DNA from: an uncultured Gemmatimonadaceae bacterium
GTDB taxonomy: Bacteria; Gemmatimonadota; Gemmatimonadetes; Gemmatimonadales; Gemmatimonadaceae
Direction of reading: 5' to 3'
Length of the DNA: 64,000 nucleotides
NCBI GenBank assembly: GCA_963829055.1
Contig: CAWHHI010000016.1
Coordinates: 192,001 to 256,000, forward strand
Under the pieces are notes generated by a model. It was not told the DNA's origin and did not search any database. It was given only the letters and a program-made list of their open reading frames with translations. Shown in pieces: positions 2 to 45,832 of this stretch (its first letter is position 1; the number at the start of each line of letters is the position of its first letter). A program made the translations under genes and the position numbers.

Positions 2-1240
2 AGGCAGCCGGAGAACGGCACGGCCACGAGTGTCGATGAAGCCGTCGTGGTCGCGACGCGCATCGGCTACCCGGTACTCGTCCGACCGTCCTACGTGCTC
101 GGCGGCCGCGCCATGCAGATCGTCTATGATGAGGCGTCACTGCGCGAGTACTTCGCCACCGCGGCGCGCGTGTCGGAAGACCGTCCGGTGCTCATCGACT
201 CGTTCCTCGAGGATGCGTTCGAGGCTGACGTCGATGCGGTGAGCGATGGCAAGCGCGTGGTGATCGGCGGCGTTATGCAGCACATCGAGGACGCCGGCAT
301 TCACTCGGGCGACTCGGCGTGCGTGTTGCCGCCGTACATGATTACCGATACCGATGCAGACACGATGCGTCGGCACACGATCGCGCTCGCGAAGGCGCTC
401 GGCGTGGTGGGTCTCATCAACGTGCAGTACGCCGTGAAGCACGGCGTGGTGTACGTCCTCGAGGTGAACCCGCGCGCGAGTCGCACCATCCCGTATGTCT
501 CGAAGGCGATTGGGGTCCCGCTCGCGTCGGTCGCTGCTCGTGTGATGATGGGCGAGACGCTCGACGACATCGGCTTCACCGAGGAGATCGTTCCGCACTA
601 CGTCAGCGTGAAGGAGGCCGTATTTCCGTTCACGAAGTTCCGCGAGTTCGACCCGATTCTCGGACCCGAGATGCGCTCGACGGGCGAGGTCATGGGGATC
701 TCGAACTCGTTCGGAAGCGCGTTCGCGAAGGCACAGCTCGCGGCCGACAATGCGCTGCCGCTCAACGGCGCCGTGTTCATCACGGTGAATGACTCCGACA
801 AGAAGAACGTCACCCCGATCGCACGTCAGTTCCACGAGCTCGGCTTCGAGATCTACGCGACACCGGGAACGGCGCGGTACCTCCGTGGGCTCGGTATCCA
901 GGCGACGGAGGTATTCAAGGTGCACGAGGGGCGGCCGCATGGCATCGACCTGATCGTGAACGGGCAGGTCCAGCTGCTGATCAACACGCCGCTCGGCAAA
1001 CACGCGCTGCGTGACGACTACACGCTGCGGCAGGCCGCGATCGCGAACCGTGTCTCATACACGACGACACTGTCAGCGGCCAACGCGGCGTTGATGGCGA
1101 TCATCTCCCTCCGCTCGCGGACGCCGAGCATCAAGTCGCTTCAGGAATGGCACGAGGACTTACGCACCTGGCGGGAGGCAGGGCAGACGCCGGAGTCCGC
1201 CGCGCGGACGACGCCCATCGGCGTTCCGGTTCCACGTTAG
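2..1240 (+). CDS. carB: Carbamoyl-phosphate synthase large subunit, C-terminal part (5' truncated by window)
   Basis: [51 protein letters not shown] and an MGS-like tail; frame open from base 2. Confidence 0.97.
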
Positions 1241-1257
1241 GCGCGACGGCCGGGACG

Positions 1258-1881
1258 ATGAGCGCGTTCATCCACGAATCCAGCTACGTCGATGATGGTG
1301 CCGTCATTGGTGACGGTACCAAGGTCTGGCACTTCTGTCACGTCATGGGCGGAGCTGTGATCGGCGAGCGCTGCAGTCTCGGCCAGAACGTGGTCGTGAT
1401 GCCCGGCACGCGCATCGGCAACAACGTCAAGATCCAGAACAACGTCTCGATCTACGAAGGCGTGGAACTCGAGGACGACGTGTTCTGCGGTCCGTCGATG
1501 GTGTTCACGAACGTCATCAATCCGCGCAGTCACGTGTCACGAAAACACGAGTACCAGCGCACGCTCGTTCGACGAGGGGCCACGATCGGCGCGAACGCGA
1601 CGATCGTCTGCGGTGCGACGCTCGGCGAGTACGCGTTCGTCGGAGCGGGTGCGGTCGTGACGAAGGACGTGAAATCGTACGCGTTGGTGACCGGAGTGCC
1701 TGCTCGGCAGGTTGGATGGATGTGTCGATGTGGGGAGAAGATTCCGGACTGCGGACAGCGGGAACAGGGCACGGAGCAACGCGGAACCGAGCGCCGCAAC
1801 GCGAATCGTCTGCGGTGCGTGCGGACACCGCCTACACGCTCGATGACGACAACTCGCGGCTCGCCGAAGCACCATGACTGA
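1258..1881 (+). CDS. wbpD: Hexapeptide-repeat sugar N-acetyltransferase (WbpD/WlbB type); 3' end probably disturbed by indels
   Basis: ATG 1258 [59 protein letters not shown]; a CGAC motif lies out of frame near 1810. Confidence 0.85.
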
Positions 1882-1883
1882 GC

Positions 1884-2927
1884 ATGACTGAGACGCCTCC
1901 CATTCGCATCGCTCTCGCAGGGTGTGGGCGCATCAGCCGCAATCACTTCGATGCCATCGCGAAGATCGATGGCCTCGAGCTCGCGGCTGTCTGCGACATC
2001 ATTCCGGAGCGCGCGCGCGAGGCAGCTGACCGCTATGGCGTGCCATGGTTCGAGTCAGTCGACGAGATGCTCGCCTCGGTTCGATGCGATGCCGTCGCAC
2101 TCTGCACGCCATCCGGGCTGCATCCGAAGAACGGCATCGTTGCGGCGAGGGCCGGGAAGCACGTCATCTGCGAGAAGCCAATGGCGATCTCGCTCGAGGG
2201 TGCGGATGCGCTGGTCCAGGAGTGCGACGCGGCGGGCGTCCAGCTGTTCGTCGTGAAGCAGAATCGATTGAATCCGTCGATTCAGCTGCTCAAGCGCGCG
2301 ATTGATCGCGGTCGATTCGGTCGGATCTATCTGGCCAACACGACCGTCCGGTGGACGCGCCCCCAGGAGTACTACGACCAGGCGCCGTGGCGCGGCACGT
2401 GGGAGTTCGATGGCGGCGCCATCATGAATCAGGCGTCGCACTACGTCGACCTGATTCAGTGGCTCGTTGGACCCGTCGAGAGTGTGACGGCGAAGACTGC
2501 CACGCTCGCGCGTCGGATCGAGGCTGAAGATACGGGCATCGCCGTACTGAAATTTCGGTCGGGCGCCCTCGGCGTCATCGAAGTCACAATGCTCACCTAC
2601 CCGCGAAACCTCGAAGGATCGATCACCATTCTCGGGGAGAAGGGCAGCGTGAAAGTCGGTGGCACTGCCGTGAATCGCGTCGAGCACTGGACGTTCGCGG
2701 ACTACGATGACGACGACAAGCTCGTGGACGCGGCGTCGACCAATCCTCCGACGGTGTACGGCTTCGGCCACGAGGGCTACTACCGGAACGTGCTTGCGGT
2801 GCTGCGCGGTCAGGCCAAGGCGGAAACCGATGGACGCGCGGGGCGCAAATCACTCGAGCTGATTCTCGGGATCTACGAATCCGCGAAGACGGGCCGCGAC
2901 GTTCCCATTCCTCTCGCGCGCCGCTGA
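1884..2927 (+). CDS. wbpB: Gfo/Idh/MocA oxidoreductase, UDP-GlcNAcA 3-dehydrogenase type (WbpB/WlbA)
   Basis: GCGRIS Rossmann start, CEKPMA, WTRPQEYY..WRGTWEFDGGAIMNQASHYVD; context with wbpD/E/A. Confidence 0.85.
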   Translation: MTETPPIRIALAGCGRISRNHFDAIAKIDGLELAAVCDIIPERAREAADRYGVPWFESVDEMLASVRCDAVALCTPSGLHPKNGIVAARAGKHVICEKPMAISLEGADALVQECDAAGVQLFVVKQNRLNPSIQLLKRAIDRGRFGRIYLANTTVRWTRPQEYYDQAPWRGTWEFDGGAIMNQASHYVDLIQWLVGPVESVTAKTATLARRIEAEDTGIAVLKFRSGALGVIEVTMLTYPRNLEGSITILGEKGSVKVGGTAVNRVEHWTFADYDDDDKLVDAASTNPPTVYGFGHEGYYRNVLAVLRGQAKAETDGRAGRKSLELILGIYESAKTGRDVPIPLARR

Positions 2928-2983
2928 TCGAGCCGTCAAACAGCGACGCGGCGCGCGCTCATTCTCTCTCGACTCCTCCAGTC

Positions 2984-4096
2984 ATGCCCGTTCCGTTACT
3001 CGATCTTCGTGCGCAGCACGCGACCATCAAGGACGACGTCGTGCGCGCCATGATGCGTGTTGTCGACGACCAGCTCTTCATCCTCGGCGAGCCGGTCGAA
3101 CGGCTCGAGAAAGCAGTCGCCGAGCTGTCGCGGACGAAATACGCGATCGGGTGCGCCAACGGCACTGACGCGATTCTGCTGGCGCTCCGCGCGCTGGATG
3201 TCGGCCGCGGCGACGAGGTCGTAACGACCCCGTTCACGTTCTTCGCGACAGCGGGCACGGTGCATAACGTGGGCGCCACGCCGGTGTTCGTGGACATCGA
3301 ACCGGACACGTTCAACATCTCGGCGGATGCCGTTGGCGCCGCGGTCGGTCCGAAGACGAAAGCGGTCATCCCGGTGGACCTGTTCGGCGCGATGGCGGCA
3401 ATCGAGCGTGTCGAAGCCGCGGCGCCCGGTATTCCGATCATTGAGGATGCCGCACAGTCCATCGGCGCCAAGCGTCGAATCGGCGACAGCTGGGTCATGG
3501 CTGGAGAGCGCGCCACGATCGGCACGCTCAGCTTTTTCCCGTCCAAGAACCTCGGCGCCTATGGCGACGCAGGGATGATGCTCACGCAGGACGAGGGCCT
3601 CGCCACGCGCCTCAAGCGGCTCCGGGTTCACGGCGGGGCGAAGACCTACTACCACGACGAAGTCGGCTACAATAGCCGCCTCGACGCGCTACAGGCCGCT
3701 GTGCTCCACGCGAAGCTGGCTCACCTCGAAGGGTGGAGCGCAAAGCGCCGGGCGAATGCCGCGTACTACGATAGCGCCTTCGCGGACCTGCCCGACGTCA
3801 AAACGCCATACGTCGAGCCCTGCAACGTCTCGATCTTCAACCAGTACACGATTCGCGTTGCGCGCCGAGATGCTCTTCAGTCCTTCCTGAAGGAACGGGG
3901 TATCGGGAACTCGATCTACTACCCCCTCCCGCTCCACCTGCAGCCATGTTTCGCGTACCTGGGCTACAAGGAAGGGAGCTGTCCGGAGTCTGAGCGCGCG
4001 GCGGGAGAGGTACTATCCTTGCCGATCTTCCCAGAGCTCGAACAATCCCAACTCGACGAAGTCATCGCTGCCGTACGCTCCTTCTACGGCCGTTGA
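2984..4096 (+). CDS. wbpE: DegT/DnrJ/EryC1/StrS PLP aminotransferase (WbpE/WlbC type)
   Basis: ANGTDA, IEDAAQSIG, SFFPSKNLGAYGDAG, GYNSRLDALQAA. Confidence 0.88.
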   Translation: MPVPLLDLRAQHATIKDDVVRAMMRVVDDQLFILGEPVERLEKAVAELSRTKYAIGCANGTDAILLALRALDVGRGDEVVTTPFTFFATAGTVHNVGATPVFVDIEPDTFNISADAVGAAVGPKTKAVIPVDLFGAMAAIERVEAAAPGIPIIEDAAQSIGAKRRIGDSWVMAGERATIGTLSFFPSKNLGAYGDAGMMLTQDEGLATRLKRLRVHGGAKTYYHDEVGYNSRLDALQAAVLHAKLAHLEGWSAKRRANAAYYDSAFADLPDVKTPYVEPCNVSIFNQYTIRVARRDALQSFLKERGIGNSIYYPLPLHLQPCFAYLGYKEGSCPESERAAGEVLSLPIFPELEQSQLDEVIAAVRSFYGR

Positions 4097-4133
4097 CGCG
4101 TCGCGTCATCCGATCGTTCAATTATTGACTGTG

Positions 4134-5532
4134 ATGAAAGCAGAACTCCTTTCCCGAATTCAGGACCGCAGCGCCACCGTCGGCGTCGTGGGGCTCGGCT
4201 ACGTCGGCTTGCCGCTCGCAATGGAATTCGCGAAGGCGGGTTTCCACGTCATCGGCTACGACGTCAGCGACCGTGTGTGCAAGCTGCTCATGAGTGGCCA
4301 GTCGCACATCCAGGACGTTCCCGCGGCCGAAGTCGCCTCAATGCTCAAGAACGGGCTCTTCGAGGCGACGACCGACGAAAGCGCGCTAGGCCGTTGCGAC
4401 GCGATCTCGATTGCGGTCCCGACGCCGCTCAGCAAGACGCGCGACCCGGACATGAAGTACGTTCAGGCCGCTACCGAGGCGATCGCTCGCAATGCGCACC
4501 CTGGGATGCTCGCCGTGCTCGAGAGCACGACGTACCCCGGTACGACGCGCGAAGTCATGCAGCCCAAGCTCGAAGAGCGCGGGCTCACGGTGGGGAAGGA
4601 CGTCTTCCTCGCGTTCAGCCCCGAGCGCGTCGATCCGGGCAATCCGAAGTACCACACGAAGAACACGCCCAAGGTCGTCGGCGGCATCACGGCCGCGTGC
4701 ACTGAGGTGGCGGTGGCGCTCTACTCGTCGTGCATCGACACGGTGGTGCCAGTGTCGACGACCGAGGCGGCGGAGCTCGTGAAGCTGCTCGAGAACACGT
4801 TCCGGTCGGTGAACATCGGCCTCGTGAACGAGATGGCGATCATCTGCGAGAAGCTGCACGTCAACGTCTGGGAAGTCATCGAGGCGGCCGCGACGAAGCC
4901 ATTCGGCTTCATGAAGTTCACGCCGGGCCCCGGCATCGGCGGCCACTGCATTCCGCTCGATCCGCACTACCTCGCGTGGAAGATGCGCACCCTGAACTAC
5001 AAGACGCGCTTCATCGACCTGGCGAGCGAGATCAACAGCGAGATGCCGGCGCTCGTCGTCGACAAGGTCTCGGTTGCGCTCAACGATGACAGAAAGGCGG
5101 TCAACGGCAGCCGCATCATCGTCGTCGGCGTCGCGTACAAAAAGGACATCGACGACATCCGCGAGAGCCCTGCGCTCGACGTGATCCGCCTGCTCGAGGA
5201 GCGCGGTGCTGAAGTCGTCCATCACGACCCGTTCATCCCGCGGTTTCGTGACGGAGGTCACGATGGTGGAGGGGAGCACAAAGAGCGCATCGGCGTGCGA
5301 TCTGAGCGCCGCGGAGTTAGGCAGGGCGGACGCGGTCGTTATCGTCACGGACCACTCGCAGATCGACTACCAGCAGATCGTCGATGACGCGAACCTCGTG
5401 ATCGATACGCGCAACGCGACTGCGCACGCGAGTCGCGGGCGGGCGCGAGTCGTTTCGCTCGCCGCTGACCCCAAGCCCGCGGCGACGGCGTCGCTCGGCA
5501 CGCAGTCTCGGAAGAAGACCGCGATGACCTGA
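4134..5532 (+). CDS. wbpA: UDP-N-acetyl-D-glucosamine 6-dehydrogenase (WbpA type), +1 frameshift near 5297
   Basis: VVGLGYVGLPLA, ESTTYPGTT, KLLENTFR, GPGIGGHCIP; the C-terminus ADAVVIVTDH..VIDTRNA continues in the next frame (ORF 5206-5532). Confidence 0.88.
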
Positions 5533-5741: not shown

Positions 5742-7517
5742 ATGGTGCGCGCCACCTCTCACCGTGCGCCTTCCCTGCGAACACGTCCGATTCAGATCCT
5801 TCGTTCCGCGGCGACCAGCTGTGCGTTCCCGCTCGCCTGCTGGCAGACGATTGAGCGCCTTGCGATCGCGTTCATAGCGACGCTCTTATCGTTGGCGGCG
5901 GGCGGCAACGCCGCTGCGCAGGGGCAGCCGCACTCGCTGACGACGCTGCCGATCGGCGACGCCGCGTACGCGCAGTTGGCCGCGCTCGAACGCAGCGGGT
6001 GCAGGCCGGCACGCGTCTCGCCGCATCGCCCGTTCATGGTCCGCGACGTCCAGCGAGCGGTCGCGCGGTTTGCGTCCAACCCGCAATGCGGTGGTCCGGT
6101 CGCGGTGTCACTCGCGACTCGGTTTCTGGCGGCACGCAAGCCGACGCCGCCAGGCGAGGTCGCTTCGGATCTGGCGGCGGCCGTCCGCGAATCGGAGCCC
6201 GACTCGTTGGACACGTTTCGCTTCGGCGGGCGAGCGACGATTCGTGGCACGGCGCTCGCCCGCGGCGAGTTCGAGCCGCTGTGGGCCGGCGTTAGGCCGA
6301 GCGACGAGGGGACACCGCCGGTAGTCGCTGAGGGCCGCGCGCGACTTGGCTGGTCGTCGTCGCCGCACCTCGTTGTCGTCGGTGAGTTGTATGGGCAGAC
6401 CTCGCGCCGGAATGATCCCACCGTTCGACAGCGTGCGTTCCGCAACACGTCGGGCGTCGTCGATTTCGGCGAGACCTACGCGAACGCGTCGTTAGGCAGG
6501 CTGGACGTCTCGTTCGGCCGGAGCTGGGCGTCGTGGATGGGCGAGGACACCGAGTCGATCGCGCTGTCGGCGAATGGTCCGCTCGTGGACCGGCTCGAGC
6601 TCGGCCTTCGATGGCGCGTCGCTGAAGTGCGGGCGATTGTCGCGTCAGTCAACGACGTGACAATGACGCCGGAGCTCGACAGCCTTGCCGCGGACACGCC
6701 CGAGACCCGTTTTCATCGCTGGCTCTACGGCCACGTCCTCACCATCAAACCGAACGATCGTCTTGAGTTCACGATCGGCGAAACGATATTGTCGTCACGT
6801 ACGACGGGCGGGCTCGACCTCGCGTACGCGAATCCCGTCATGGCGTATGTCATCACCCAGAACGACACAGGCCGCGTCGGTTCCGATACACGCGACAACC
6901 TCGTCGTCTTCGGCGGCGCTCGCGTTGCGCTCGGCCGCGGTCACATCGGCGCCGAGCTGACGGTGGATGACATCCAGATCGATGCCGAGGACCGGGAGAC
7001 TACAGCGGATCAGCTCGCATGGCGAGTCTATGGCGCCCTGCCGATCCCTGTTGGTACGAACTCGGGTGCGAAGGTCGAATACCGCCGCGTCGACAGCTAC
7101 GCTTACCTTCGGGACTTCTACACCGACGTGTACCAGCAGTACGATAAACCGCTGGGCTCAGTGCTCGGTCCTGGCGCGGACCTCATCCGCGCCGTGGGTG
7201 AGACGTGGATCGGTGGCGATGTGCGAGTCGCTGCCGGCATTGGGCACTGGCGTCAGGGAGGACTGCGGATCGACCAACGGCCAGCCCAAGGACCGAATGG
7301 CAACGCAAACAAGCCTTTCCCGGCCGTCACGAGCACCCGTCCAGAAGTTCAGTCCGCTCTCCTGGCGGACCTGCAAGCGCAACGGCTCAATCTTCGCGTC
7401 CCGATCTCAGTGCAACTCCAGCTCGCGCGCATCGAGAACGCGGCGAACGTGTCTGCCGCCGCGGCCCTATATGTGCGAGCAGTCATCAGCGGTTCCTATG
7501 CGTTCCGATATCCCTGA
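5742..7517 (+). CDS. Capsule assembly Wzi-family outer-membrane protein (start uncertain)
   Basis: Signal-like hydrophobic stretch, beta-strand-rich body, GRSWASW..SIALSANGP, GHVLTIKP, PLGSVLGP; directly upstream of wza/wzc. Confidence 0.65.
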   Translation: MVRATSHRAPSLRTRPIQILRSAATSCAFPLACWQTIERLAIAFIATLLSLAAGGNAAAQGQPHSLTTLPIGDAAYAQLAALERSGCRPARVSPHRPFMVRDVQRAVARFASNPQCGGPVAVSLATRFLAARKPTPPGEVASDLAAAVRESEPDSLDTFRFGGRATIRGTALARGEFEPLWAGVRPSDEGTPPVVAEGRARLGWSSSPHLVVVGELYGQTSRRNDPTVRQRAFRNTSGVVDFGETYANASLGRLDVSFGRSWASWMGEDTESIALSANGPLVDRLELGLRWRVAEVRAIVASVNDVTMTPELDSLAADTPETRFHRWLYGHVLTIKPNDRLEFTIGETILSSRTTGGLDLAYANPVMAYVITQNDTGRVGSDTRDNLVVFGGARVALGRGHIGAELTVDDIQIDAEDRETTADQLAWRVYGALPIPVGTNSGAKVEYRRVDSYAYLRDFYTDVYQQYDKPLGSVLGPGADLIRAVGETWIGGDVRVAAGIGHWRQGGLRIDQRPAQGPNGNANKPFPAVTSTRPEVQSALLADLQAQRLNLRVPISVQLQLARIENAANVSAAAALYVRAVISGSYAFRYP

Positions 7518-8252
7518 CGCTTCGCGTGGTCGGCCACACACGTACGCCCGAGGGCGTGCTCGCCAATCGAGAGCACGCATCGCGTGCATCACGTCGTGTG
7601 TCTTCGCGGTACTGGCGATGGCGGCGGCGCCGACACGCGCGCAGACGGTCCTGCCGCTGCCGGCCCCGCAGGACACAGGGACGGCTCCCCGAAACGTGGG
7701 TGCGCTCCGTCCCGGTGACGTCCTCAAGATCGCGGTCTTCCGCGACAAGGAGCTCACGGGCGATTATCCGATCGATGCGCGCGGCTATGTGCAGATTCCG
7801 GGACTCGGCGTGATCAAGGCGGCGGGTCTCGATCCGACCGAAGTCACCGATCGATTGCGGCTCGCGCTCATCGAGCGCGGATTCGCTCGCCCGGAGATCT
7901 CGGTGCAGCCGCTGATCCGCGTCTCGGTGTTAGGCGAGGTGCGTTCGCCGAACGTCTACCCGGTCGATCCGGGAACCAGCCTGCTGCAACTCCTCACCGT
8001 GGCAGGCGGACCCACGGACCGCGCGAAGCTCCAGGACACGCGCGTCATTCGCGACGGTCGCGCATTCAAGATCGACATGGACGGCGGTCTTCACGGGAGT
8101 CCCGCCGGGCGCGTGGTGCTCTATTCCAACGACGTTGTCGTCGTCGGGCGAAAGAGAGGGTTGACGAGCGAGAACCTCGGGCTTAGCGCTGACGGGTGCA
8201 TCCTTCATTCTCGTCGTGCTCAACATTGGCTTTCCTGGTGCGTCACAATTGA
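7498..8252 (+). CDS. wza: Polysaccharide export protein (Wza/Poly_export + SLBB); 3' end has apparent indels
   Basis: LRPGDVLKIAVFRDKELTGDYPIDARGYVQIPGLG, VSVLGEVRSPNVY, AGGPTDRA; the C-terminal hydrophobic helix is recovered only by a frame change near 8186; probable stop TGA 8250-8252. Confidence 0.75.
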
Positions 8253-10681
8253 GAGCTCCCTATCTTGCCCCGGTCGCGAACGGTGACGATGCGCCGGTGG
8301 GCGGCGATGCCTTCTCGGTGCGCGACGTGCTGCTCGCCGTGCGCCGTCGCTGGTGGGCGGTCCCCATCGTGTTCGTGCTGTTCGTGTCGTTCGGTATCTG
8401 GCGAACGATGCGCGAACCGCACATTTACCGCGCGGCGACTACCGTCCGCATCGAGAACGCGACGTCGCCTATTGCGGGCGTACAGACGAGCGCGCCGACC
8501 TACGACTATCGGATCGATCCGATGGTGTCGGAGCAACAGGTCATCAAGAGCCGGATGGTTGCCGAGCGTGTCGTCAACGCGCTCGGCCTGCGTCTCCGCG
8601 TGGTCGAACCGTCGGGCCTCGAGCGCGCCGATCTGTTCGGTGGGGTGCCGCCACTCGTGGATTCCACCGCACCTCCGGGCGACCTCAGGCTCACGTTAGG
8701 CGCGACGACGTACTCGCTGAGCACCGGCGGCATCAAGTACGCCACCGCGACGTACGGTCGAGCGGTCGCCGGCGGCGGCGTGAGATTCGTCGTGCCGGAG
8801 CGGCCGCCGGTCCGCGAGCAGAGCGTCCTGCTCGAGATACTTCCGCTCGCGGCGGCCGCGGCCGAGCTGCGCGGTTCGATCGCGACGAAGGTCCTGCCGC
8901 AGACGAACATCGTCGAGATCTCGTATGTCGGCACCGAGCCCGCACTCGTCCGCGACGTGACGAACGCCGTCGCCCGCGAGTATGCCGCCGTTTCCAGCGA
9001 AATGCAGCGCGCGAATGCGCGTGCAAGGAGTCAGTTCATCGCGTCGTCGCTGCGTGATCAACGTCTGCGGCTGGACTCGGCCCAGGACGCACTCAAGAAC
9101 TTCAAGGAGCGCGAGCAGATCGGCGATGTGAACTCCGAGCAGGCGGCGCTCGCCCAAAGCATCCATCGGATGGAAGAGGCGAAGCAGTCGGGCCTCGTCG
9201 AGCAGCAGATCTATTACACGCTCGTGGGCAAGCTCACGGCGGCGGACACGGCTGACGAAGAGCTTCGCCGTCTCGTGGGCACCGAGGCCGTCGAGAAGAA
9301 TCGCTACATCGCGAACCTTTACGACCGCTGGTTCAGCCTCGTGAAGGAGCGCGAAACGCTCTATGCGCGCGGTCGGACGGAGAAGAACGAGGACGTGAAG
9401 GCAGTGCAGCGTTTGATCAGCCGGACGAAGGAAGACGTCCAGAGCGCGAGCCAACTCTATCTGCTGGCGCTGCAGTCGCGCCTCGGCTCGCTCGACAAGT
9501 CGATCGCGAACCTTCGCGTGCAGACGGAGAAATATCCGAAGCTCGAAGCCGAGCAGACGCGGCTCTCGGCGACGATGGGGACGATGCAGCGAACGTTCGA
9601 CAACCTCCAGTCCGAGTTCCAGCTCGCGCGGATCTCCGAGTCGGTGGACGCCGGTCGCGTGCAGTCCATCGACGAAGCCACGCTCCCCACGTTTGCCGTC
9701 TCGCCCAACCGTAAGCGCGCGATCACGTACTCCGCGCTCGTGGGCCTGCTTCTCGGGTTCGCGCTGGCGTTCGCGCTCGACCGGCTCGACGACTCCGTCA
9801 AATCGCCGGACGAGTTGCGAGAGCAGATGGATCTTCCGATGCTCGGCTTGATTCCGGCGATCCGTGCGGAGCGAGGCAGTCGCCGGACGGCCGACTCGAC
9901 GGCCGGCCGACTGATCACACATGCCGACCCGCGATCGCCGGTAGCCGAGGCGTACCGTTCCATGCGAACGAACCTGGCGTTCGCGCGCGCGCAGCAGTCG
10001 CCGCAGGCAATCGTGGTGGCGAGTCCTGGACCGTCCGATGGCAAGTCGACCACCGTCGCAAACCTCGCCATCACGTTCGCTCAGCAGGGCCAGCGTACGC
10101 TGTTGATCGACGCGGACCTGAGGCGCGCGGTGCTCGACAAGGCGTTCTCGATTCCGCGTTCGCCGGGGCTCACCGAAGTCATCATCGGGGAAGCGTCGCT
10201 CGAGGACGCGGTGCACGAGACGGCGGTGCCGAACCTGTCGCTCGTTGCCAGCGGTCGTTTCCCGCCGAACCCGGCCGAGCTGCTCGGCTCGGTGCGCATG
10301 CAGGAAATACTGCACGAAGCCAAAGCACAGTTTGACGTCGTGCTGCTGGACTCGCCGCCGCTCCTGGCGGTGACCGATGCCGCGGTGCTCGCTACGATGG
10401 TCGATGGCGTCGTGCTCGTAGTTCGCACGGAGCGTACGAAGCGTGATGCGGTGCGGCGGGCGCTCGGACACATCCACTCGGTCCGCGGGCGCTTGTTAGG
10501 CGCCGTGCTGAACGACGTGGATCTTCGAAGCGGCGCGTACTATGGCAGCTATGGGCACTACTATTACTCGTATTACGGTACCGATCGCCGTGCCAGCAAC
10601 GGAGGTGGTGCGGTGCGGCGACTGCGCCAGCTCGTCGGGCGCGGCGCGTCCAACAACGGCGAGAGCGACGAAGGCGCGTGA
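8249..10681 (+). CDS. wzc: Polysaccharide co-polymerase / tyrosine autokinase (Wzc)
   Basis: Two TM segments, coiled periplasmic region, SPVAEAYRSMRTN, Walker A GPSDGKST, LLIDADLRR, PPNPAELL, DSPP, Tyr-rich tail YYGSYGHYYYSYYG; TTG 8249 start inferred. Confidence 0.93.
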   Translation: MRAPYLAPVANGDDAPVGGDAFSVRDVLLAVRRRWWAVPIVFVLFVSFGIWRTMREPHIYRAATTVRIENATSPIAGVQTSAPTYDYRIDPMVSEQQVIKSRMVAERVVNALGLRLRVVEPSGLERADLFGGVPPLVDSTAPPGDLRLTLGATTYSLSTGGIKYATATYGRAVAGGGVRFVVPERPPVREQSVLLEILPLAAAAAELRGSIATKVLPQTNIVEISYVGTEPALVRDVTNAVAREYAAVSSEMQRANARARSQFIASSLRDQRLRLDSAQDALKNFKEREQIGDVNSEQAALAQSIHRMEEAKQSGLVEQQIYYTLVGKLTAADTADEELRRLVGTEAVEKNRYIANLYDRWFSLVKERETLYARGRTEKNEDVKAVQRLISRTKEDVQSASQLYLLALQSRLGSLDKSIANLRVQTEKYPKLEAEQTRLSATMGTMQRTFDNLQSEFQLARISESVDAGRVQSIDEATLPTFAVSPNRKRAITYSALVGLLLGFALAFALDRLDDSVKSPDELREQMDLPMLGLIPAIRAERGSRRTADSTAGRLITHADPRSPVAEAYRSMRTNLAFARAQQSPQAIVVASPGPSDGKSTTVANLAITFAQQGQRTLLIDADLRRAVLDKAFSIPRSPGLTEVIIGEASLEDAVHETAVPNLSLVASGRFPPNPAELLGSVRMQEILHEAKAQFDVVLLDSPPLLAVTDAAVLATMVDGVVLVVRTERTKRDAVRRALGHIHSVRGRLLGAVLNDVDLRSGAYYGSYGHYYYSYYGTDRRASNGGGAVRRLRQLVGRGASNNGESDEGA

Positions 10682-12249
10682 GCAGCGCTGTGGAGGACGG
10701 ACACGTGGCGGCGATCTCGTTCGACGTGCGCGATGCGGTTTCGCTCGCGATCAGGCTCGCGCTTGGGAAGCCTCGGCTCGAGGACTGCTACGCCAACTGG
10801 GCCCTGGTGTTCGACGCGGCGTCGCGCGAGTTGCTCGCGCCGCTCGCGTGGATTCGGTCGGGTCAGTTCATTCGTCGGTTCGCCGGTCCGGTTGTGACGG
10901 ATCGGTGGCGTCGTGCGGCGGTGGCGACGCACGTCCGGGGACAGCAGCAGCTCGACCTGCTACGGGTTGCCATGGATGCGCTCAGAGCCGCGGGGGTCGA
11001 AGGCATCGCGCTCAAGGGGTTACCGTTAGGCCAACGGCTCTACGGTGATCCGTTCGTCCGCTGCTCGGCGGACATCGACCTGTATGTCCCCGCGGTACAG
11101 CGGGCACGCGCGAGCGCTGCGCTCGAGTCCATCGGCTGGCGGAGCGACGACGGGCAGGCGCCCTGGCACGAGGCGTGGTCGATCTGGCGCGCGGACGTCG
11201 CGTATCATCTCGAGCTGCACTCGTCGCTCGTATCCGATCATCTGTTCCACTTGGAGCCGCCGGCGCCGGGGTCCACCACCGTGTATGTCGCCGGTGTGCC
11301 GGTGCGCGCGCACGCCGGTGATTTTGTTGCGCCGTACCTGGCGGTCCATCTCGCGACGCACCAGATGCCTCCACTGCTGTGGTTCGTGGATTTCGCGAGC
11401 CTCTGGAGCTCGCTCTCCGCGGTGGAGCGCGTTCGCGCCGAAGGCGCTGCGCTCGAGGCGGGCGTGTCTCGCTACCTCGCCTGGGCCCGCGACCGAGCGG
11501 TCCTGGTCGACCGTCTCGCCGCTGGCGACCGGGAGACGTTAGGCGCGCTCGGCGTCACGAGCGACCGGCGCCGCGACATCCACTCCATCTGGCGGCACCT
11601 CGCGCTCGCGGCTACCGTGGCCGACCGCGTTCACGTGATGGCCGCGTTTCTGATTCCTCGTCGTGTTCGCGGCGATATCGGAGCGTTTGCGCGATACACG
11701 CTGGCGCGACTTCGCACTCGACTTCGGTCGCTCGCCGGAATGTCTCGCGACTACGCGTCGTCGGACGACAGCGCCCAGCCCGTCGAGTCGCAACTGGAGG
11801 TTTCACCAGGGTCCGCGCGCGCACTTCGGATGGAGCGGAGCGACATGGTGGCGCTCGCGACCGACGTTACGCGCGCGGGTGGCGCGCTGCGAGTTCGCGC
11901 GCGGGGCGGAAGTATGCTGCCGACGATTCCGCGAGGGGCGCTCGTCCGGATCGGCGGCGTACCGCCCGCCGGGGTGCTGCGTGGCGATGTGGTGTTGGCC
12001 CTGACGACCGACGGTGAGCCGGTTCTCCATCGCGCCGTGGAGGTTCGGCCCGACGCGATCGTGACCCGCGGTGACGCGGCCATCTACGTCGACGCCGCCA
12101 TTCCGCTCACGCGAGTAATCGGGGTGGCCACGCATGTCACTGAGGCCGGCGTCGAGCGCCAGCTGGGCCGTCGACCGCAGCGGTCGCTTGCGGTTTCCGC
12201 GCTCAAGCTTCGCCGGCGCCTTGCACGGGTGGTGCGTCGTGATCGCTGA
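10678..12249 (+). CDS. Nucleotidyltransferase (NTP_transf_5-like) fused to a C-terminal S24/S26 peptidase-like domain
   Basis: N-part ALKG..LYGDPFVRCSADIDLYV..LELH; C-part RARGGSMLPTI..GDVVL..VLHRAV..TRGDA; GTGA overlap with the wzc stop. Confidence 0.75.
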   Translation: MSSAVEDGHVAAISFDVRDAVSLAIRLALGKPRLEDCYANWALVFDAASRELLAPLAWIRSGQFIRRFAGPVVTDRWRRAAVATHVRGQQQLDLLRVAMDALRAAGVEGIALKGLPLGQRLYGDPFVRCSADIDLYVPAVQRARASAALESIGWRSDDGQAPWHEAWSIWRADVAYHLELHSSLVSDHLFHLEPPAPGSTTVYVAGVPVRAHAGDFVAPYLAVHLATHQMPPLLWFVDFASLWSSLSAVERVRAEGAALEAGVSRYLAWARDRAVLVDRLAAGDRETLGALGVTSDRRRDIHSIWRHLALAATVADRVHVMAAFLIPRRVRGDIGAFARYTLARLRTRLRSLAGMSRDYASSDDSAQPVESQLEVSPGSARALRMERSDMVALATDVTRAGGALRVRARGGSMLPTIPRGALVRIGGVPPAGVLRGDVVLALTTDGEPVLHRAVEVRPDAIVTRGDAAIYVDAAIPLTRVIGVATHVTEAGVERQLGRRPQRSLAVSALKLRRRLARVVRRDR

Positions 12250-13135
12250 ATCCCGCATGGTCGCCGTGGCGCCGGTGGCAGGCATTCCGATCGTCCACGA
12301 GTTGATGGACGGGATCGAGATCGAACATCGCGATGCCGTTCTGTGGGCAGGAACCGCGTCGACATGCGCCCCGATCGTCATTCGGCATGAGCTTGGCGAT
12401 GCGTCTCCGCGCGCGATGCGCGCGGTGCTCGACGTGCCGCCGTGGTGCACGTTCCACCTCGATGCACGCGGAGAACCAGCGTCGCACTTTCACGCGGTCT
12501 TCGGTGAAGTGGATCGCCTGCTGACGTGTGAGGAGCCGGGCGCGACCTACGTCGTCAAGTATGGCGCCACTCCCCGCGAGCCTGTCGTCGCCTTGCAGTC
12601 GGAGCTCGCGACCTACTCGTTCGCGCTGTCGGCGCGCGAAGTCGGGCTGATCGCGCATTCGTGCGCGTTCGTCACGCCGGATGGGGCAGGGGTGCTGTGC
12701 CCGGGCGTGTCCGGCACTGGCAAGACGACGCTCGCGCGTCTGCTGCACGCGAACGTGCCCGAGGTGGAGTTGCTCACCGACGATCGCGCGATCGTTAGGC
12801 TCGACGCCGATGCGCTCAGCGTGTGGGGCTCGCCGTGGCCTGGCGCCGCGGGCATCGCCGGACCCGGTGTGGCATCGCTCGATGCGGTCGTTTTCATTCG
12901 CCATGGCACTACGATGACGATGCGTCGCGTGGCGCCGAGCGATGCGTTCCGCCGGATCCTGAACACGCTGTCGATGCCGCTCTGGGAGCCGGCTCGATGT
13001 GGCCGTGCACTGGAGATCGTCGACGCCATCGTGTCCCGCGCGACGCTTGTGGAAGCGTCGTATCCGCCCACAGGCCGCGCCGCTCGCTGGCTCGTGGACG
13101 AGCTCCGTGGACTCGAATCGTTAGGCGCGCGATGA
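12239..13135 (+). CDS. HPr-kinase-related P-loop kinase
   Basis: AHSCA, Walker A GVSGTGKTT, LLTDDR, WGSPW; start GTG 12239 or ATG 12257. Confidence 0.75.
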   Translation: MIAESRMVAVAPVAGIPIVHELMDGIEIEHRDAVLWAGTASTCAPIVIRHELGDASPRAMRAVLDVPPWCTFHLDARGEPASHFHAVFGEVDRLLTCEEPGATYVVKYGATPREPVVALQSELATYSFALSAREVGLIAHSCAFVTPDGAGVLCPGVSGTGKTTLARLLHANVPEVELLTDDRAIVRLDADALSVWGSPWPGAAGIAGPGVASLDAVVFIRHGTTMTMRRVAPSDAFRRILNTLSMPLWEPARCGRALEIVDAIVSRATLVEASYPPTGRAARWLVDELRGLESLGAR

Positions 13136-13464
13136 CGCAGGCCAACGATGCATCCACCGCGCGGTGGCAGCGCGCCGGCGGCGTCATCGCGCGACGGGTG
13201 GCGGGCGAGACGGTGCTCGTACCGCTCACCGCACGTGCGTCCGATCCCGAGTTCAAGAGCGCTCGCCTGTACGTCTTGAACGAGACAGGCGAGTTCCTCT
13301 GGTCGTTGCTCGATTCCCCTCGGTCCAGTGTCGAGCTGGCTCGGAACTTGACTCAAGAGTTCGTGACCGCGGCCGGACGTGCGCATTCGGATGTGGAAGT
13401 GTTCCTCGCCGCGCTGCGCGACATTGGTGCCATCCGCGAGCTGCCCGACGACGGAGCCGAATGA
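13132..13464 (+). CDS. PqqD-family RiPP recognition element (RRE), 110 aa
   Basis: IARRVAGETVLVP..LYVLNETGEFLWSLLD..ELARNLTQEF..DVEVFLAALRDIGAI; ATGA overlaps with both neighbours. Confidence 0.88.
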   Translation: MTQANDASTARWQRAGGVIARRVAGETVLVPLTARASDPEFKSARLYVLNETGEFLWSLLDSPRSSVELARNLTQEFVTAAGRAHSDVEVFLAALRDIGAIRELPDDGAE

Positions 13465-14576
13465 GCGCAATGCAGATGTCGATGGGCCGCTTCGAGGAGC
13501 GACTGGGCGCGCGAGCACGGCGCGAGCGCCAGCCGCTGTCGTGCCTATTCGAGATCACGCCTCGGTGTAACCTCCGCTGCAAGTTCTGCTACGTCGCCCT
13601 CGATCCATATCAGGGCCCGTACCTCGGCACCGACCAGGCGTGTCGTGTGCTCGACGTCATCGAGCAGGCGGGGGTGCTGTGGCTGACGCTGACGGGTGGG
13701 GAGGTGTTCTCACGACGCGACTTCCCGACCATCTACGAATACGCGCTGACCAAGGGGCTCCTCGTCACGATCTATACGAACGCGACGATGGTCACCGAGT
13801 CCGTGGCGCAGCTCCTCACCGACCGGCCGCCGTTCTCGGTGGAGGTCAGCATCTACGGGGCGGACGCCGAGCACTACGAGGCGACGACGCAGATTCCCGG
13901 CTCATTCGCGCGGTTCGAGCGCGGGATCGCGCGACTGCAGGCCGCGGGCGTGCCCCTGCTGATGAAATGCCCGATCAGCACATTGACCGCGGATCACGTC
14001 GCGGCGCTCGTGCAATGGTGTACCGACCGCGCTTTACCATTCAAGGCGGACCCGGTTATCGACGCGCGCCACGATGGCGGGCAGCAGCCGACTCTCTACC
14101 GCATCGCGCCTCGCGGCGTCGTCGAGCTTCGCGATGAGCTGTACGCGTTGAGTCACGGCGCGCCGCGGCCTGCTGGACCGCTTCCCGAATGTTCAGTCCG
14201 CGGCGACGCGGATGGCCCTGAAGAGCTGTACACCTGCGGTGCCGGGCGTATAGCGTTCTTTGTCGACGCACTCGGAAACGCCAGCCATTGCGTGATCGAT
14301 CGCGAGCCGTCATTTCCGATTCTCGAAACGCCGTGGAACGAGCTCTGGACGCGCATGGGAGCGTGGGTTACGCAGCCGTTGCCGACCGACGCGTCGTGCA
14401 GCGGATGCTCGCTGCGCGGCGGGTGCAGCAACTGCCCGGCGCGATCGAGGCTCGCGACCGGAAGTCCGTTCCTGAAGGATGAATACCAGTGTGACATCAC
14501 ACACGCCATTCATGGGCTTCCGCCGGCGCGCCACGAGCATCGCGCGCCTCGCCCACTCGCAGCGTGTACCGCCTAA
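13461..14576 (+). CDS. Radical SAM protein with SPASM domain (peptide maturase type)
   Basis: CNLRCKFC motif, LTGGE, YTNAT; C-terminal CGAG..GNASHC..CSGCSLRGGCSNCP..YQC. Confidence 0.92.
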   Translation: MSAMQMSMGRFEERLGARARRERQPLSCLFEITPRCNLRCKFCYVALDPYQGPYLGTDQACRVLDVIEQAGVLWLTLTGGEVFSRRDFPTIYEYALTKGLLVTIYTNATMVTESVAQLLTDRPPFSVEVSIYGADAEHYEATTQIPGSFARFERGIARLQAAGVPLLMKCPISTLTADHVAALVQWCTDRALPFKADPVIDARHDGGQQPTLYRIAPRGVVELRDELYALSHGAPRPAGPLPECSVRGDADGPEELYTCGAGRIAFFVDALGNASHCVIDREPSFPILETPWNELWTRMGAWVTQPLPTDASCSGCSLRGGCSNCPARSRLATGSPFLKDEYQCDITHAIHGLPPARHEHRAPRPLAACTA

Positions 14577-14599
14577 CGTGACGTGCCGAGGCTAGCACC

Positions 14600-14776
14600 A
14601 TGACTGAACAGAACCCCTTGTCCGACGTCGAACATTCCGACGCACGGCGCCCGTATGAGCCGCCGGCGGTGATCGAGGTGTTCGTCGACCCGGCGAAGGA
14701 CATGCTCGTTGCCTGCGCCCCCGGTAAGTTGCCCAGCTCGGGCGGACGGGCCTGTAACGCCGTGCAGTTTACCTGA
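14600..14776 (+). CDS. Putative RiPP precursor peptide, 58 aa: MTEQNPLSDVEHSDARRPYEPPAVIEVFVDPAKDMLVACAPGKLPSSGGRACNAVQFT
   Basis: Translated by hand; GAGG at 14588-14591 before the ATG; 23 nt after the rSAM stop; YxxP leader motif; Cys39 and Cys52 in a small-residue-rich C-terminus. Confidence 0.8.
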   Translation: MTEQNPLSDVEHSDARRPYEPPAVIEVFVDPAKDMLVACAPGKLPSSGGRACNAVQFT

Positions 14777-14800
14777 GGCGGGAAGCGGCCCCACGCCGCG

Positions 14801-14831
14801 GAACTGGCGACTGAAGCGCTCGCGCCAGTTC
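14801..14831 (+). terminator. Stem-loop after the precursor gene (terminator or stabilising hairpin)
   Basis: GAACTGGCG...CGCCAGTTC 9-bp stem; no U tract. Confidence 0.35.
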
Positions 14832-15046
14832 ACATCGCCGGTCCGGGGCGGGACCGTCTGACGGCTCGATCGTCATCCACGACGCCCTCGGCCATCACGT
14901 TTCCCCGCGACACCACCACGAGATCGTTGCCCGATCGATCCAGAACGTCCGTCGATGAACACATCGACGGTCGCGCGACGGTTGCGGCTGCACACTGGCC
15001 TAGGTAAGCTATTGCGGCCACTCAACTTCAACGAACTGGAGCACGC

Positions 15047-16360
15047 GTGAAGATCGCTGTCATCGGGTCCGGCTACGTCGGCCTGGTCGTAGGCGCCTGC
15101 CTGGCGGAAACCGGAAATGACGTGACGTGCGCAGACGTCGATCAGAACAAGATCGATGGGCTGAAGCAGAACGTCTTGCCAATTTACGAGCCGGGCCTGG
15201 ACGGGCTCGTCGAACGGAACCAGCAGCAAGGCAGGCTTCACTTCACCACCGACGTGGGCAACGCGGTCGCGAAAGCGGAAGTCGTGTTCATCGCCGTGGG
15301 CACGCCACCGGACGAAGACGGCTCCGCGGACCTCCGCCACGTGCTCAGCGTGGCTGACATGATCGGCGAGCACATGACGCGCGAGCTCGTCGTCGTCACC
15401 AAATCGACTGTACCAGTCGGGACAGCGGCGAAGGTCGCGAGCGCCGTCGGCAAAAAGGCGCGGCACCCATTCCACATGTGCAGCAACCCCGAGTTCCTGA
15501 AAGAAGGTGCGGCGCTCGACGATTTCATGAAGCCCGACCGTGTCGTGCTCGGCGTCGACAGCGATCACGCGCGCAGCGTCATGGCGGAGCTGTACGCGCC
15601 GTTCGTCCGAACCGGCAAGCCGATCATCTTCATGGACATTCCTTCGGCGGAGATGACGAAGTACGCCGCCAATGCGATGCTGGCGACGCGCATCTCGTTC
15701 ATGAACGAGATCGCGAACCTGTGCGAGAAGGTCGGCGCGAATGTCGATCTCGTTCGAAAGGGCATTGGCAGCGACGCGCGCATTGGCCCGTCGTTTCTGT
15801 TCCCAGGACCCGGCTACGGAGGCTCCTGCTTTCCGAAGGACGTGAAGGCGCTCGTGCGCACTGCTGGAGAAGCAGGATCACCACTCAACGTTCTCCAGGC
15901 AGTGGAAGATGCCAACGATCGTCAGAAGCATCGCCTGTTCGAGAAGCTGCACTGCGCGCTTGGCGACGCGATCAAGGGCGCGCACATCGCGGTGTGGGGG
16001 CTCGCGTTCAAACCGCAGACCGACGACATGCGCGAGGCGCCGGCGCTCACATTGATCGACGACGTCATCGCCGCTGGCGCGACGATCACGGCGCATGATC
16101 CGGCGGCGATGCACGAGGCGAAACGCCGCGTCGGCGCCCGCATCAACTACGCGGCGTCGAACTATGAAGCGCTCGATGGCGCAGACGCGCTGGTCGTGGT
16201 GACCGACTGGAACGAGTACCGGCACCCCGATTTCTCACGCATGAAATCACTGCTTCGACGGCCCGTCGTCATCGATGGCCGCAATCTGTACGATCCCGCG
16301 AAGATGCAGACGCTCGGCTTCGACTACTTCTCGTTCGGACGCGGGAGAGAACGCGCATGA
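15047..16360 (+). CDS. ugd: UDP-glucose 6-dehydrogenase
   Basis: [52 protein letters not shown]. Confidence 0.95.
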
Positions 16361-17313
16361 GAGTGCTCATCACCGGCGCCGCCGGCTTTCTCGGGTCGCA
16401 CCTCTGCGACCGGTTCCTTGCCGATGGGCATTCGGTGGTGGGACTCGACAACTTTCTCACCGGGAACCCGGCGAACATCGCCCACCTCATGGGCGACACG
16501 CGGTTCGAGTTCGTCGAGCACAACATCTCGACGTACACGTACGTCGCGGGCCAACTGGATGGCGTGCTGCACTTCGCCTCGCCCGCCAGTCCGGTCGACT
16601 ACCTCGAGTTTCCGATCGCGACGCTCAAGGTCGGCGCACTCGGTACGCACAACGCGCTGGGCCTCGCGAAGGCGAAAGGGGCGAGATTCTTCATCGCGTC
16701 GACGTCCGAGGTTTATGGCGACCCGCTCGAGCATCCGCAGACGGAGAAATACTGGGGGAATGTGAACCCCATTGGTCCGCGCGGCGTCTACGACGAAGCG
16801 AAACGCTTCGCGGAAGCGATGACGATGGCATACCATCGCTTCCACGGGATGGACACGCGGATCGTGCGGATCTTCAACACGTACGGGCCGCGCATGCGTC
16901 CCAACGACGGCCGTGTCGTATCGAATTTCATCGTTCAGGCTCTCAGCAACGAGCCGCTCACGATTTACGGCGACGGTTCACAGACGCGGAGCTTCTGCTA
17001 CGTCTCGGACGAGGTCGAGGGTATCTACCGGCTGTTCATGCGGGGGGACAGCAACCCCACGAACATCGGTAACCCGAATGAGTTCACGGTGCGCCAACTG
17101 GCCGAGCTCGTGATCGAGTTGACGGGGACCAAAGCCACGATCGTCCAGCGCGAGCTTCCCGTAGATGATCCGAAAGTGCGACGTCCCGATATCACCCGGG
17201 CCCGCGAGATGCTGGGATGGGAGCCCACCGTCGCGCTTCGCGAGGGCGTGGGGCGCACCATCGAATACTTTCGGTCAGTTCTGACGAAGGAAGCGGTCTC
17301 GGCCCGCGCGTAG
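16357..17313 (+). CDS. UDP-glucuronate decarboxylase (UDP-xylose synthase family, extended SDR)
   Basis: [56 protein letters not shown]. Confidence 0.92.
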
Positions 17314-44860: not shown

Positions 44861-45832
44861 ATGCTTTCCGCCCGCTTCAAGCCGTATCACGTTCCGCTCT
44901 TCCTCGCGAAGTATGCCTGGTTGACGGCCCGACGCCGCCCGATCCTCGTCCACTTCGAGGTCACCATGCGGTGTAACGCGCGCTGCGGCTTCTGCGACTA
45001 CTGGAAGACGCCAGCGGAAGCGAAGGAGCACGAGCTGAAGAGCTTTGCCGACGCGGCGAAGTTCTTCAATCCGATGATGGTGACGTTCACGGGCGGTGAG
45101 CCGACGCTTCGAAAGGATCTCGAGGAGCTCGTGTCGGCCGTGAGCAAGGCGATCAATCTCAAGTACATCACGATGATCACGCACGGCGCGATGCTCACGC
45201 CCGATCGCGCGTGGGACTTGTGGCAGGCGGGAATCAACCAGTTCAACATCTCGCTCGACTATCTCGACGGGCGCCACGATACCGCTCGCGGTATTCCGGG
45301 GCTGACGGCGAAGATCTTCAGGAACGCCGCCGCGATGCGTGATCGTGGCATCGACTCGATTCGCTTCAACGCCGTGATCAAGGACGACAACCTCGATCAG
45401 ATCCTGCCCATCGCGCAGAAGGCGGCGGAGCTCAAGTGCGGCGTGAATTTCAGCGTCTACACCGCCGCGAAGAACGGCAACACCGAGCATTTGCTGCGCG
45501 ATGAGCAGCTGGACGCCATCGACAAGCTCGTCGCCGATCTGCTCGCGTTCAAGCGACGCAAGCGCGGCATCATCACGAACTCCGACTACTACATCGAGCA
45601 GATTCCGCGCTACGTGCGCGGCGAGATGAAGGAGCCGTGTCAGTCGGGCCTCCGGACGATTCACATCGATCCCACGGGTCACGTGAAGCGCTGCCCCGAC
45701 TTCCCGGTGGACTTCCACTGGTCGGAGTTCAAGCAGTACGAGCCGATCGACTGTAACGCGTGTTACTACGCGTGCCGTGGCGAGGCACAGGCACCACTCC
45801 GCCTGTCGCGTGTGCGAGATGTGATGGCGTGA
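44861..45832 (+). CDS. Radical SAM protein with short Cys-rich (twitch/SPASM-like) C-terminus, function unknown
   Basis: CNARCGFC, FTGGEP, CQSG..IDPTGHVKRCP, CNACYYAC. Confidence 0.88.
   Translation: MLSARFKPYHVPLFLAKYAWLTARRRPILVHFEVTMRCNARCGFCDYWKTPAEAKEHELKSFADAAKFFNPMMVTFTGGEPTLRKDLEELVSAVSKAINLKYITMITHGAMLTPDRAWDLWQAGINQFNISLDYLDGRHDTARGIPGLTAKIFRNAAAMRDRGIDSIRFNAVIKDDNLDQILPIAQKAAELKCGVNFSVYTAAKNGNTEHLLRDEQLDAIDKLVADLLAFKRRKRGIITNSDYYIEQIPRYVRGEMKEPCQSGLRTIHIDPTGHVKRCPDFPVDFHWSEFKQYEPIDCNACYYACRGEAQAPLRLSRVRDVMA

Follow-up and report, generated by a model that had tools for sequence, protein, structure and literature searches.

The window, a stretch of 64,000 nucleotides from an uncultured Gemmatimonadaceae bacterium (assembly GCA_963829055.1, contig CAWHHI010000016.1, positions 192,001 to 256,000), contains a small gene for a 58-residue peptide (14600..14776, forward strand) that is conserved and coding, and whose product is likely the precursor of a modified peptide of ribosomal origin. 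The gene closes a five-gene cassette that consists, in order, of a fusion of a PF14907 nucleotidyltransferase (NTase) with a SipW-like peptidase, an HprK-like kinase, a lasso-type RRE, a radical SAM/SPASM protein, and the precursor. The cassette is embedded in a Wzi/Wza/Wzc polysaccharide locus with the genes on the same strand. The best explanation as a whole, to which we give about an even chance, is that the five genes would make a cross-linked, Thr58-phosphorylated, and trimmed surface peptide.

The translation of 14600..14776 is identical to the 58-residue sequence that was given in an earlier sequence-only reading of this DNA. The start codon lies 23 nt past the radical SAM stop (14576) and 8 nt after a GAGG that resembles a ribosome-binding site (14588..14591, +). 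The sequence thereby bears out the 23-nt distance and the upstream GAGG that the reading had named. GAGG is found at a similar spot in four of the five same-genus loci. The GC content by codon position (0.66/0.48/0.81) is similar to that of the neighbouring genes. Pairwise comparison of the five same-genus loci, which gives values that are not independent of each other, yields a pN/pS of 0.17 over codons 16-58 against 1.0 over codons 2-15; the variable columns by codon position are 7/8/32. The protein search with the precursor gave 128 matches at E<=1, and the 120 that were listed all have E<=1e-15. Among the query and the best 120 of the 128 matches, YxxP and both cysteines are present in 121/121, and the invariant residues are Tyr19, Pro22, Glu26, Asp30, Pro31, Ala32, Asp34, Leu36, Val37, Ala38, Cys39, Pro41, Lys43, and Pro45, while residues 2-15 are free to vary. 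The invariance of Tyr19 and Pro22 upholds the proposal of a precursor peptide with a YxxP leader. The conservation check beside homologous radical SAM genes, which the sequence-only reading had proposed, gave the same outcome, with YxxP and both cysteines kept and the small ORF recurring after the radical SAM gene. The precursor consists of a variable N-terminus (residues 2-15), a conserved leader (residues 16-38), and a predicted core (Cys39-Thr58) that includes the second core cysteine, Cys52 (14753..14755, +).

The precursor matched no family of Pfam or NCBIfam at E<=0.1, and the same scan of 56 aligned peptides gave no meaningful family and one chance match at E 0.04. The ESM Atlas contains the exact precursor sequence, where its neighbours are unnamed hypothetical proteins. 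The description of the gene as unannotated is correct for its function, but gene callers list its homologues as 'hypothetical protein' and the exact sequence is already in that atlas. The hairpin that had been described downstream exists as a 9-bp inverted repeat (14801..14831, +); its stability is ordinary (z -1.7), it is not followed by a U tract, and the terminator scan missed it, and it was rejected as an intrinsic terminator. The DNA 3' of the precursor differs among the same-genus loci, and no promoter-like site was found within 10000-15500. Small shares of the region are contained in 17 soil RNA runs. In the four runs that were examined, RNA contigs cover the precursor gene at 14592-14724 and 14701-14931 with a depth of about 3; DNA carry-over is possible for these contigs, which are weak signs of expression.

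The bare motif is common by chance, as YxxPx[VILFA] with two cysteines occurs in 98 of the 17,638 Met-started ORFs of 40-80 aa in the genome, and the case for the ORF therefore rests on conservation. That frequency, together with the few and shallow RNA contigs, is what speaks for a chance frame, or for a small protein that is not a substrate and bears no relation to the upstream enzymes. This explanation is highly improbable and is largely refuted by the conservation: the ORF is under purifying selection, it has a fixed place after the radical SAM gene in the distant loci as well, it exhibits a leader/core architecture, and a search of the 133,556 frames of the genome with the family profile retrieves it alone (E 1.5e-23, against 0.39 for the next frame). 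A second precursor was not found elsewhere in this genome, which is 86% complete.

The polysaccharide genes upstream are wzi (5742..7517, PF14052), a putative Wza-like export gene that occupies the 3' part of the 6967-8286 frame and was assigned by synteny with the Poly_export gene of locus L117, and wzc for a chain-length regulator/tyrosine autokinase (8216..10681), the stop of which overlaps the start of the NTase gene (GTGA). The cassette continues with the NTase and SipW/archaeal-type signal-peptidase fusion (10678..12249), the HprK-like peptide kinase (12257..13135, with an inferred start at 12257), the discrete RRE of the PqqD family and lasso/LPP type (13132..13464; PF05402, E 3e-12), and the radical SAM/SPASM maturase of 371 aa (13461..14576). 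Start and stop overlaps join wzc to the NTase gene, the kinase gene to the RRE gene, and the RRE gene to the radical SAM gene. In this genus, the precursor is directly followed by ugd for a member of the UDP-glucose/GDP-mannose dehydrogenase family (15047..16360); all of these genes are on the forward strand.

At E<=1e-40, the radical SAM protein has a match in 22 of the 101 related genomes searched, the window's own included, with six of six in the same genus, 21 of 60 in the family, and none of 40 from two other families. In the phylum-wide sample, for which five candidates were scored per genome, the family was identified in five of 401 genomes at E<=1e-80, all under the same family. The named relatives are Gemmatimonadaceae. 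The radical SAM protein has 628 representative clusters at E<=1e-30, and the gene context was examined in those loci that were fetched. Where the radical SAM identity exceeds 55% and the locus extends for 200 nt or more downstream, a small ORF always lies 25-83 nt after the radical SAM match; four further loci above that identity end too early to show it. The wzc gene is directly upstream in 12 of the 14 loci that have upstream DNA (among 18 longer loci), and the other two have a nucleotide-sugar dehydrogenase gene directly before the cassette. No lasso cyclase, B2 peptidase, or ABC exporter was found among the window genes 5742-17313 (without the Wza-like frame) and 72 neighbour proteins.

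Several other arrangements were observed around these genes. At loci from outside this genus, a conserved trio of genes comes after the precursor and encodes a BNR/Ig protein of about 500 aa, a NEW3-repeat protein of about 430 aa, and an OmpA-domain protein of about 520 aa (L119:11138-15537 and ten others, L120, L122-L128, L130, and L131), with the OmpA match in 11/11 loci scanned. In the window and two same-genus loci, the peptide is directly followed by ugd with no trio between them, and a tblastn search for the trio elsewhere in the genome (G000, 86% complete) found the OmpA domain alone. Two or three radical SAM paralogues surround one precursor in the related metagenome loci L049, L051-L054, and L038; the peptides at those loci are longer, and those of L051, L053, and L054 end in Arg-Pro-Ser. 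Some loci, namely L033 (1220-1414 and 3413-3580) and L064 (7028-7722), have a pair of precursor genes whose leaders are similar but whose cores differ. The frame L040:11193-12638 has a Wza-like Poly_export/SLBB region with an S24-like peptidase domain at its start, and it may be a leader peptidase-polysaccharide export fusion or two overlapping genes. Before wzi, the window has genes at 1147-5532 that, judging from orthologue scans and from their sequences, probably encode an acetyltransferase, a Gfo/Idh/MocA oxidoreductase, a DegT-like aminotransferase, and a UDP-sugar dehydrogenase. They look like a rare amino-sugar pathway. Close to the end of the 4125-5387 frame there seems to be a frameshift into 5206-5532. 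Far from the cassette, at 44861-45832, a histidine-utilisation operon has a further radical SAM gene between hutU and hutI, which is PTO1314/MoaA-like and below all cut-offs.

The leader motif YxxPxV (Tyr19-Val24, 14654..14671, +) is the predicted RRE-binding site. A second search, with six distant peptides of the two-Cys branch described below as queries, gave 46 proteins that do not overlap with the first set and most of which have no known gene context. All of the 46 distant peptides have the Tyr and Pro of YxxP, Val at Y+8, Asp-Pro, and Leu at Y+17. The profile of the RRE matched the lasso and LPP RREs TbiB1 (7e-13), PbaB1 (2e-9), and LppB (4e-9) better than PQQ PqqD (4e-5). In the crystal structure of LppB with LppA, D70 makes a hydrogen bond to the Tyr of the leader, and the Pro is kept in place by N33 and F74 (PMC13381572). 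The equivalent residues of the RRE are D87 (34/34 aligned sequences), N50 (26/34), and F91 (27/34). Judging from these conserved pocket residues, the first step of the proposed pathway would very probably be the binding of YEPPAV in the leader by the discrete RRE.

The sequence-only reading was right about the YxxP leader, but the conserved leader extends past VIEV to D30-P31-x4-L36 and likely reaches Ala38. The core had been placed from Ala38; it probably starts at or near Cys39, which is 20 residues after Tyr19, at the predicted leader/core junction Leu36-x-Ala38-Cys39 (14705..14716, +) that was identified from conservation and by analogy with LPP. The enzyme that would cut there is a part of the cassette that the sequence-only reading lacked, the SipW-like peptidase fused to the NTase. 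In this fusion, PF14907 covers residues 39-254, the SipW-like domain matches TIGR02228 (E 4e-7), the peptidase residues are Ser412, His451, and Asp466/Asp472, and there is no clear membrane anchor. The Ser, His, and GD, assigned by motif, are present in 13/13 aligned homologues, and the Ser-His spacing of 39 is the same as in LppS (S29/H68). A hydrophobic residue at -3 and a small residue at -1 matter for LppS cleavage (PMC13381572), and the predicted junction has a hydrophobic P3 and a small P1 that are comparable with F-3/T-1 of LppA. By this analogy, the Ser-His-Asp domain would probably remove the leader with RRE help. The exact bond, at or near Ala38/Cys39, can be placed only tentatively, with a cut after Ala38 as the prediction and one after Leu36 as the alternative; this fifth and last step would leave a core of about 20 residues. 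The calculated monoisotopic mass of a core 39-58 is 1962.94 Da when unmodified, and 2038.88 Da with four H lost and one phosphate gained.

The radical SAM protein has the CxxxCxxC motif (36/40/43) and the SPASM cysteines 259, 277, 313, 316, 322, 325, and 344, each of which is more than 90% conserved in 142 sequences. It also has two extra branch-specific cysteines, Cys244 and the C-terminal Cys369, which both lie in segments with pLDDT below 50 of a model with an overall pLDDT of 92.4. Of the solved structures, the sactisynthase SkfB is the closest by sequence (E 3e-29), and it also ranks first in Foldseek. SuiB, anSME, SkfB, and CteB tie in the fold comparison (Z 23-25, rmsd 2.9-3.9 over 270-323 residues), and the fold thus does not decide the chemistry.

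The peptides of close and distant relatives exhibit two patterns. The loci with a radical SAM protein more than 55% identical have 12 distinct peptides, 11 of which have two cysteines and which end in Thr (nine), Ser, Val, or Cys. The loci with a radical SAM protein 29-36% identical have 24 peptides with the same leader, of which 22 have three cysteines and 23 have a terminal Ser, against a background of 13% for terminal Ser/Thr. These counts are 20/22 and 21/22 when two distant rows, which were kept in the alignments and tree, are left out, and several distant loci gave no peptide under the filter used. In the midpoint-rooted radical SAM tree of 35 rows, from which the fragment L018 was left out, a branch with full support (100/100) separates off the two-Cys enzymes, which lie beside the three-Cys Gemmatimonadaceae enzymes. 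All 12 enzymes of the two-Cys branch have an [LV]-x-x-C C-terminus, and 11 of them have Cys244. The enzyme of the window ends with L-A-A-C-T-A (14556-14576), a tail that echoes the L-x-x-C junction of the precursor.

Cysteine is the only core residue kept throughout the 46 distant peptides, of which 28 have two, 17 have three, and one has one, and no neighbour of either cysteine is conserved. Conserved cysteines with no conserved neighbours fit a side-chain-tolerant link from sulfur to alpha-carbon. An aromatic cross-link on Phe57 was rejected, as Phe57 is not kept in the distant peptides. We give about even odds to the formation of sactionine-like thioether cross-links at Cys39 and Cys52 by the radical SAM/SPASM enzyme. 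The second step of the proposed pathway would be a modification of both cysteines, most likely into side-chain-tolerant sulfur-to-carbon thioethers.

The main competitor of the thioether reading accepts the precursor as real and assigns the enzyme another chemistry, namely an anSME-like oxidation of Cys to formylglycine/thioaldehyde, a C-C reaction, or an epimerisation, with Cys39-Cys52 left as a disulfide or a metal site. A simple disulfide could indeed be formed by these two residues, the number of cysteines in the precursor is even, the core has no conserved acceptor residue, and anSME and SuiB are among the tied top structural matches. The auxiliary cluster bears on this choice too. In thioether-forming enzymes, the sulfur of the substrate binds to an auxiliary cluster (PMC10177961), and in SuiB the auxiliary cluster I site is closed by a linker Cys (PMC6231123). 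Cys244 could by analogy occupy auxiliary cluster I in the manner of SuiB and anSME, and such closure would remove the open iron site used by thioether formers, which would count against a thioether. However, Cys244 lies in the low-confidence segment and is absent from L007, and 89 of 130 relative enzymes have no upstream Cys. Relatives also often have the three cysteines counted above (22/24 and 17/46), which disulfides alone cannot use up, and the wider family has no conserved residue, aromatic or otherwise. We regard this non-thioether explanation as rather unlikely.

The kinase has His134, GxSGxGKT (150-157), and Asp175-Asp176, which match the BsfK motif, and only weak matches far under the cut-offs to HprK_rel_B, ScmC, and HprK_rel_A. 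The acceptor residues that had been suggested were Ser46, Ser47, and the terminal Thr. Thr58 (14771..14773, +) stands as the best candidate on terminal conservation and on its complementarity with Y+20; Ser46/Ser47 are kept in close relatives (Ser/Thr at either in 112 of the 120 listed homologues) but not in the distant peptides, which makes Thr58 the better acceptor. Position 58 is Thr in 117 and Ser in two of the 120 listed close homologues. A universal terminal Ser/Thr was rejected for the wider family, as only 20 of the 46 distant same-leader peptides end in this way, and this lack of universality counts against the Thr58 reading. Position Y+20, which is Cys39 in the precursor with Thr58 as its C-terminus, is occupied by Thr in 35 of the 46 distant peptides, by Cys in 10, and by Asn in one. 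The 11 that have no Thr there all have Ser/Thr as their last residue, and not one of the 46 lacks both. The Fisher p of 3e-5 for this complementarity is overstated if the pattern reflects a single evolutionary event, which it may. Among characterised kinases, BsfK accepts Thr (described within PMC8498205, PMC9266682, and PMC10368454), and LppK does not (PMC13381572), which counts against Thr58. Taken together, the conservation patterns make the phosphorylation of Thr58 by the HprK-like kinase, the third step, reasonably likely.

Alternatively, the kinase may work in a fixed register from the RRE-bound Tyr, with Cys39 or else Ser46/Ser47 as the acceptor. The known enzymes lend some weight to this possibility, as the LppK target is Ser at Y+18, the BsfK target is Ser at Y+19, and both LPP and Bsf are phosphorylated at core position 3 (PMC13381572 and the lasso peptide papers cited above). 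Position Y+20 is Thr or Cys in 45 of the 46 distant peptides, and Ser/Thr at 46 or 47 is frequent in the close homologues, as counted above. On the other side, Ser/Thr is the last residue in each of the 10 peptides that have Cys at Y+20, and in 119 of the 120 listed close homologues, Ser/Thr in the 46/47 register is rare in the distant peptides, and eight of the 120 listed close homologues have Ser/Thr at neither position. A fixed register is therefore unlikely, and Thr58 is retained as the preferred acceptor. In the fourth step, the PF14907 domain would attach a sugar or nucleotide to the Thr58 phosphate. The analogy is with PsmN, which decorates the phosphate of pseudomycoidin (PMC8498205, PMC9266682, PMC10368454), and the inactivity of LppN in a heterologous test (PMC13381572) counts against this step. 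We place it slightly below an even chance.

Among known systems, LPP of Bacillota (lppA-K-B-S-D-N of Paenibacillus alginolyticus, PMC13381572) comes closest, but it lacks a radical SAM enzyme. The main text of that paper does not contain the term 'Radical SAM', and the supplements have it a single time, as the name of a column. Both systems have a YxxP leader, a discrete RRE with a Tyr-binding Asp, a SipW-like Ser-His-Asp peptidase, an HprK-like kinase, a PF14907-type NTP transferase, locations in capsular polysaccharide loci, and no lasso cyclase. The cassette differs by the radical SAM/SPASM enzyme, which belongs to it in all loci examined, by two conserved cysteines, by the fusion of the peptidase to the NTase, and by its Gemmatimonadaceae host. 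Only YxxPxV is shared with the LPP consensus YxxPxVLxHQxIxFETxxS, which has Ser at core position 3. The MsbA-like exporter of LPP (LppD) was not found among the same window genes (5742-17313, without the Wza-like frame) or the 72 neighbour proteins, and, unlike the linear LPP product made with no cyclising enzyme, the product here would come from a cassette to which a radical SAM/SPASM enzyme belongs.

The phosphorylated lasso peptides paeninodin (PadeK/ThcoK), pseudomycoidin (PsmK/PsmN), and Bsf share with the cassette (PMC8498205, PMC9266682, PMC10368454) a YxxP-type leader, a B1-type RRE, a His-Lys-Asp-Asp kinase that acts on the precursor, an NTase that decorates the phosphate, and a C-terminal hydroxyl residue. 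The paeninodin-type terminal Ser is Thr in most close homologues here (117/120), Ser in the three-Cys relatives (23/24), and Ser/Thr in a part of the distant peptides (20/46). The macrolactam cyclase and B2 cysteine peptidase of the lasso peptides were not found in the cassette or the neighbours scanned. A lasso ring requires Asp or Glu, and the predicted core has neither. Sactipeptides and ranthipeptides (SkfB, CteB, and PapB) likewise have a radical SAM/SPASM enzyme, an RRE, and a Cys-bearing core (PMC6231123, PMC10177961). In the cassette, the RRE is a separate lasso-type protein, and a kinase, an NTase, and a SipW-like peptidase are added. The radical SAM protein scores far under the cut-offs of SkfB, AlbA, StsB, and PapB. 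Ranthipeptides have a conserved acceptor residue at a fixed distance from Cys, and the 46 distant peptides have no conserved position near either Cys. Membership of the sacti-/ranthipeptides would depend on the predicted thioether linkage. SynChlorMet (NCBIfam TIGR04248-04251) also has PqqD-like, HprK-like, and radical SAM/SPASM genes together, but it has two radical SAM genes against one here, and the bit scores are far from the cut-offs for ScmC (17.6/125), ScmD (23.6/100), ScmE (63.9/400), and ScmF (47.9/400). The cassette product would work like LPP with a radical SAM step, yet it is not LPP and not a lasso peptide. No published description of the cassette was found in the literature searched, which covered few subscription journals. 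The novelty lies in the two-Cys, Thr-ending branch from Gemmatimonadaceae, in its Cys-tailed enzyme, and in the switch between Thr and Cys at Y+20.

The product would act at the cell surface with the Wzy-type polysaccharide that is encoded around the cassette. A bolder reading, which we consider improbable when all of its parts are taken jointly, is that of a new class of radical-SAM-cyclised phosphoglycopeptide built for joining to the cell polysaccharide. The thioether-bridged core would have its Thr58 phosphate linked to a sugar by the PF14907 domain, it would exit through Wza/Wzc as a peptide-polysaccharide conjugate, and the L-x-x-C tail of the enzyme would mimic the leader/core junction as a built-in stand-in ligand of the auxiliary cluster. 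Export via Wza/Wzc, if true, would account for the missing exporter.

The toolkit of RRE, HprK-like kinase, and PF14907 protein is common to LPP (2026) and the phosphorylated lasso peptides, and it recurs in polysaccharide loci; the cassette in this work adds a radical SAM enzyme to it. With a single precursor of 58 residues, four proteins, and a predicted core that has two cysteines in some 20 residues, the locus is a compact test case that could settle the function of this radical SAM family, the use of a terminal Thr by the kinase, and the substrate that PF14907 transfers.
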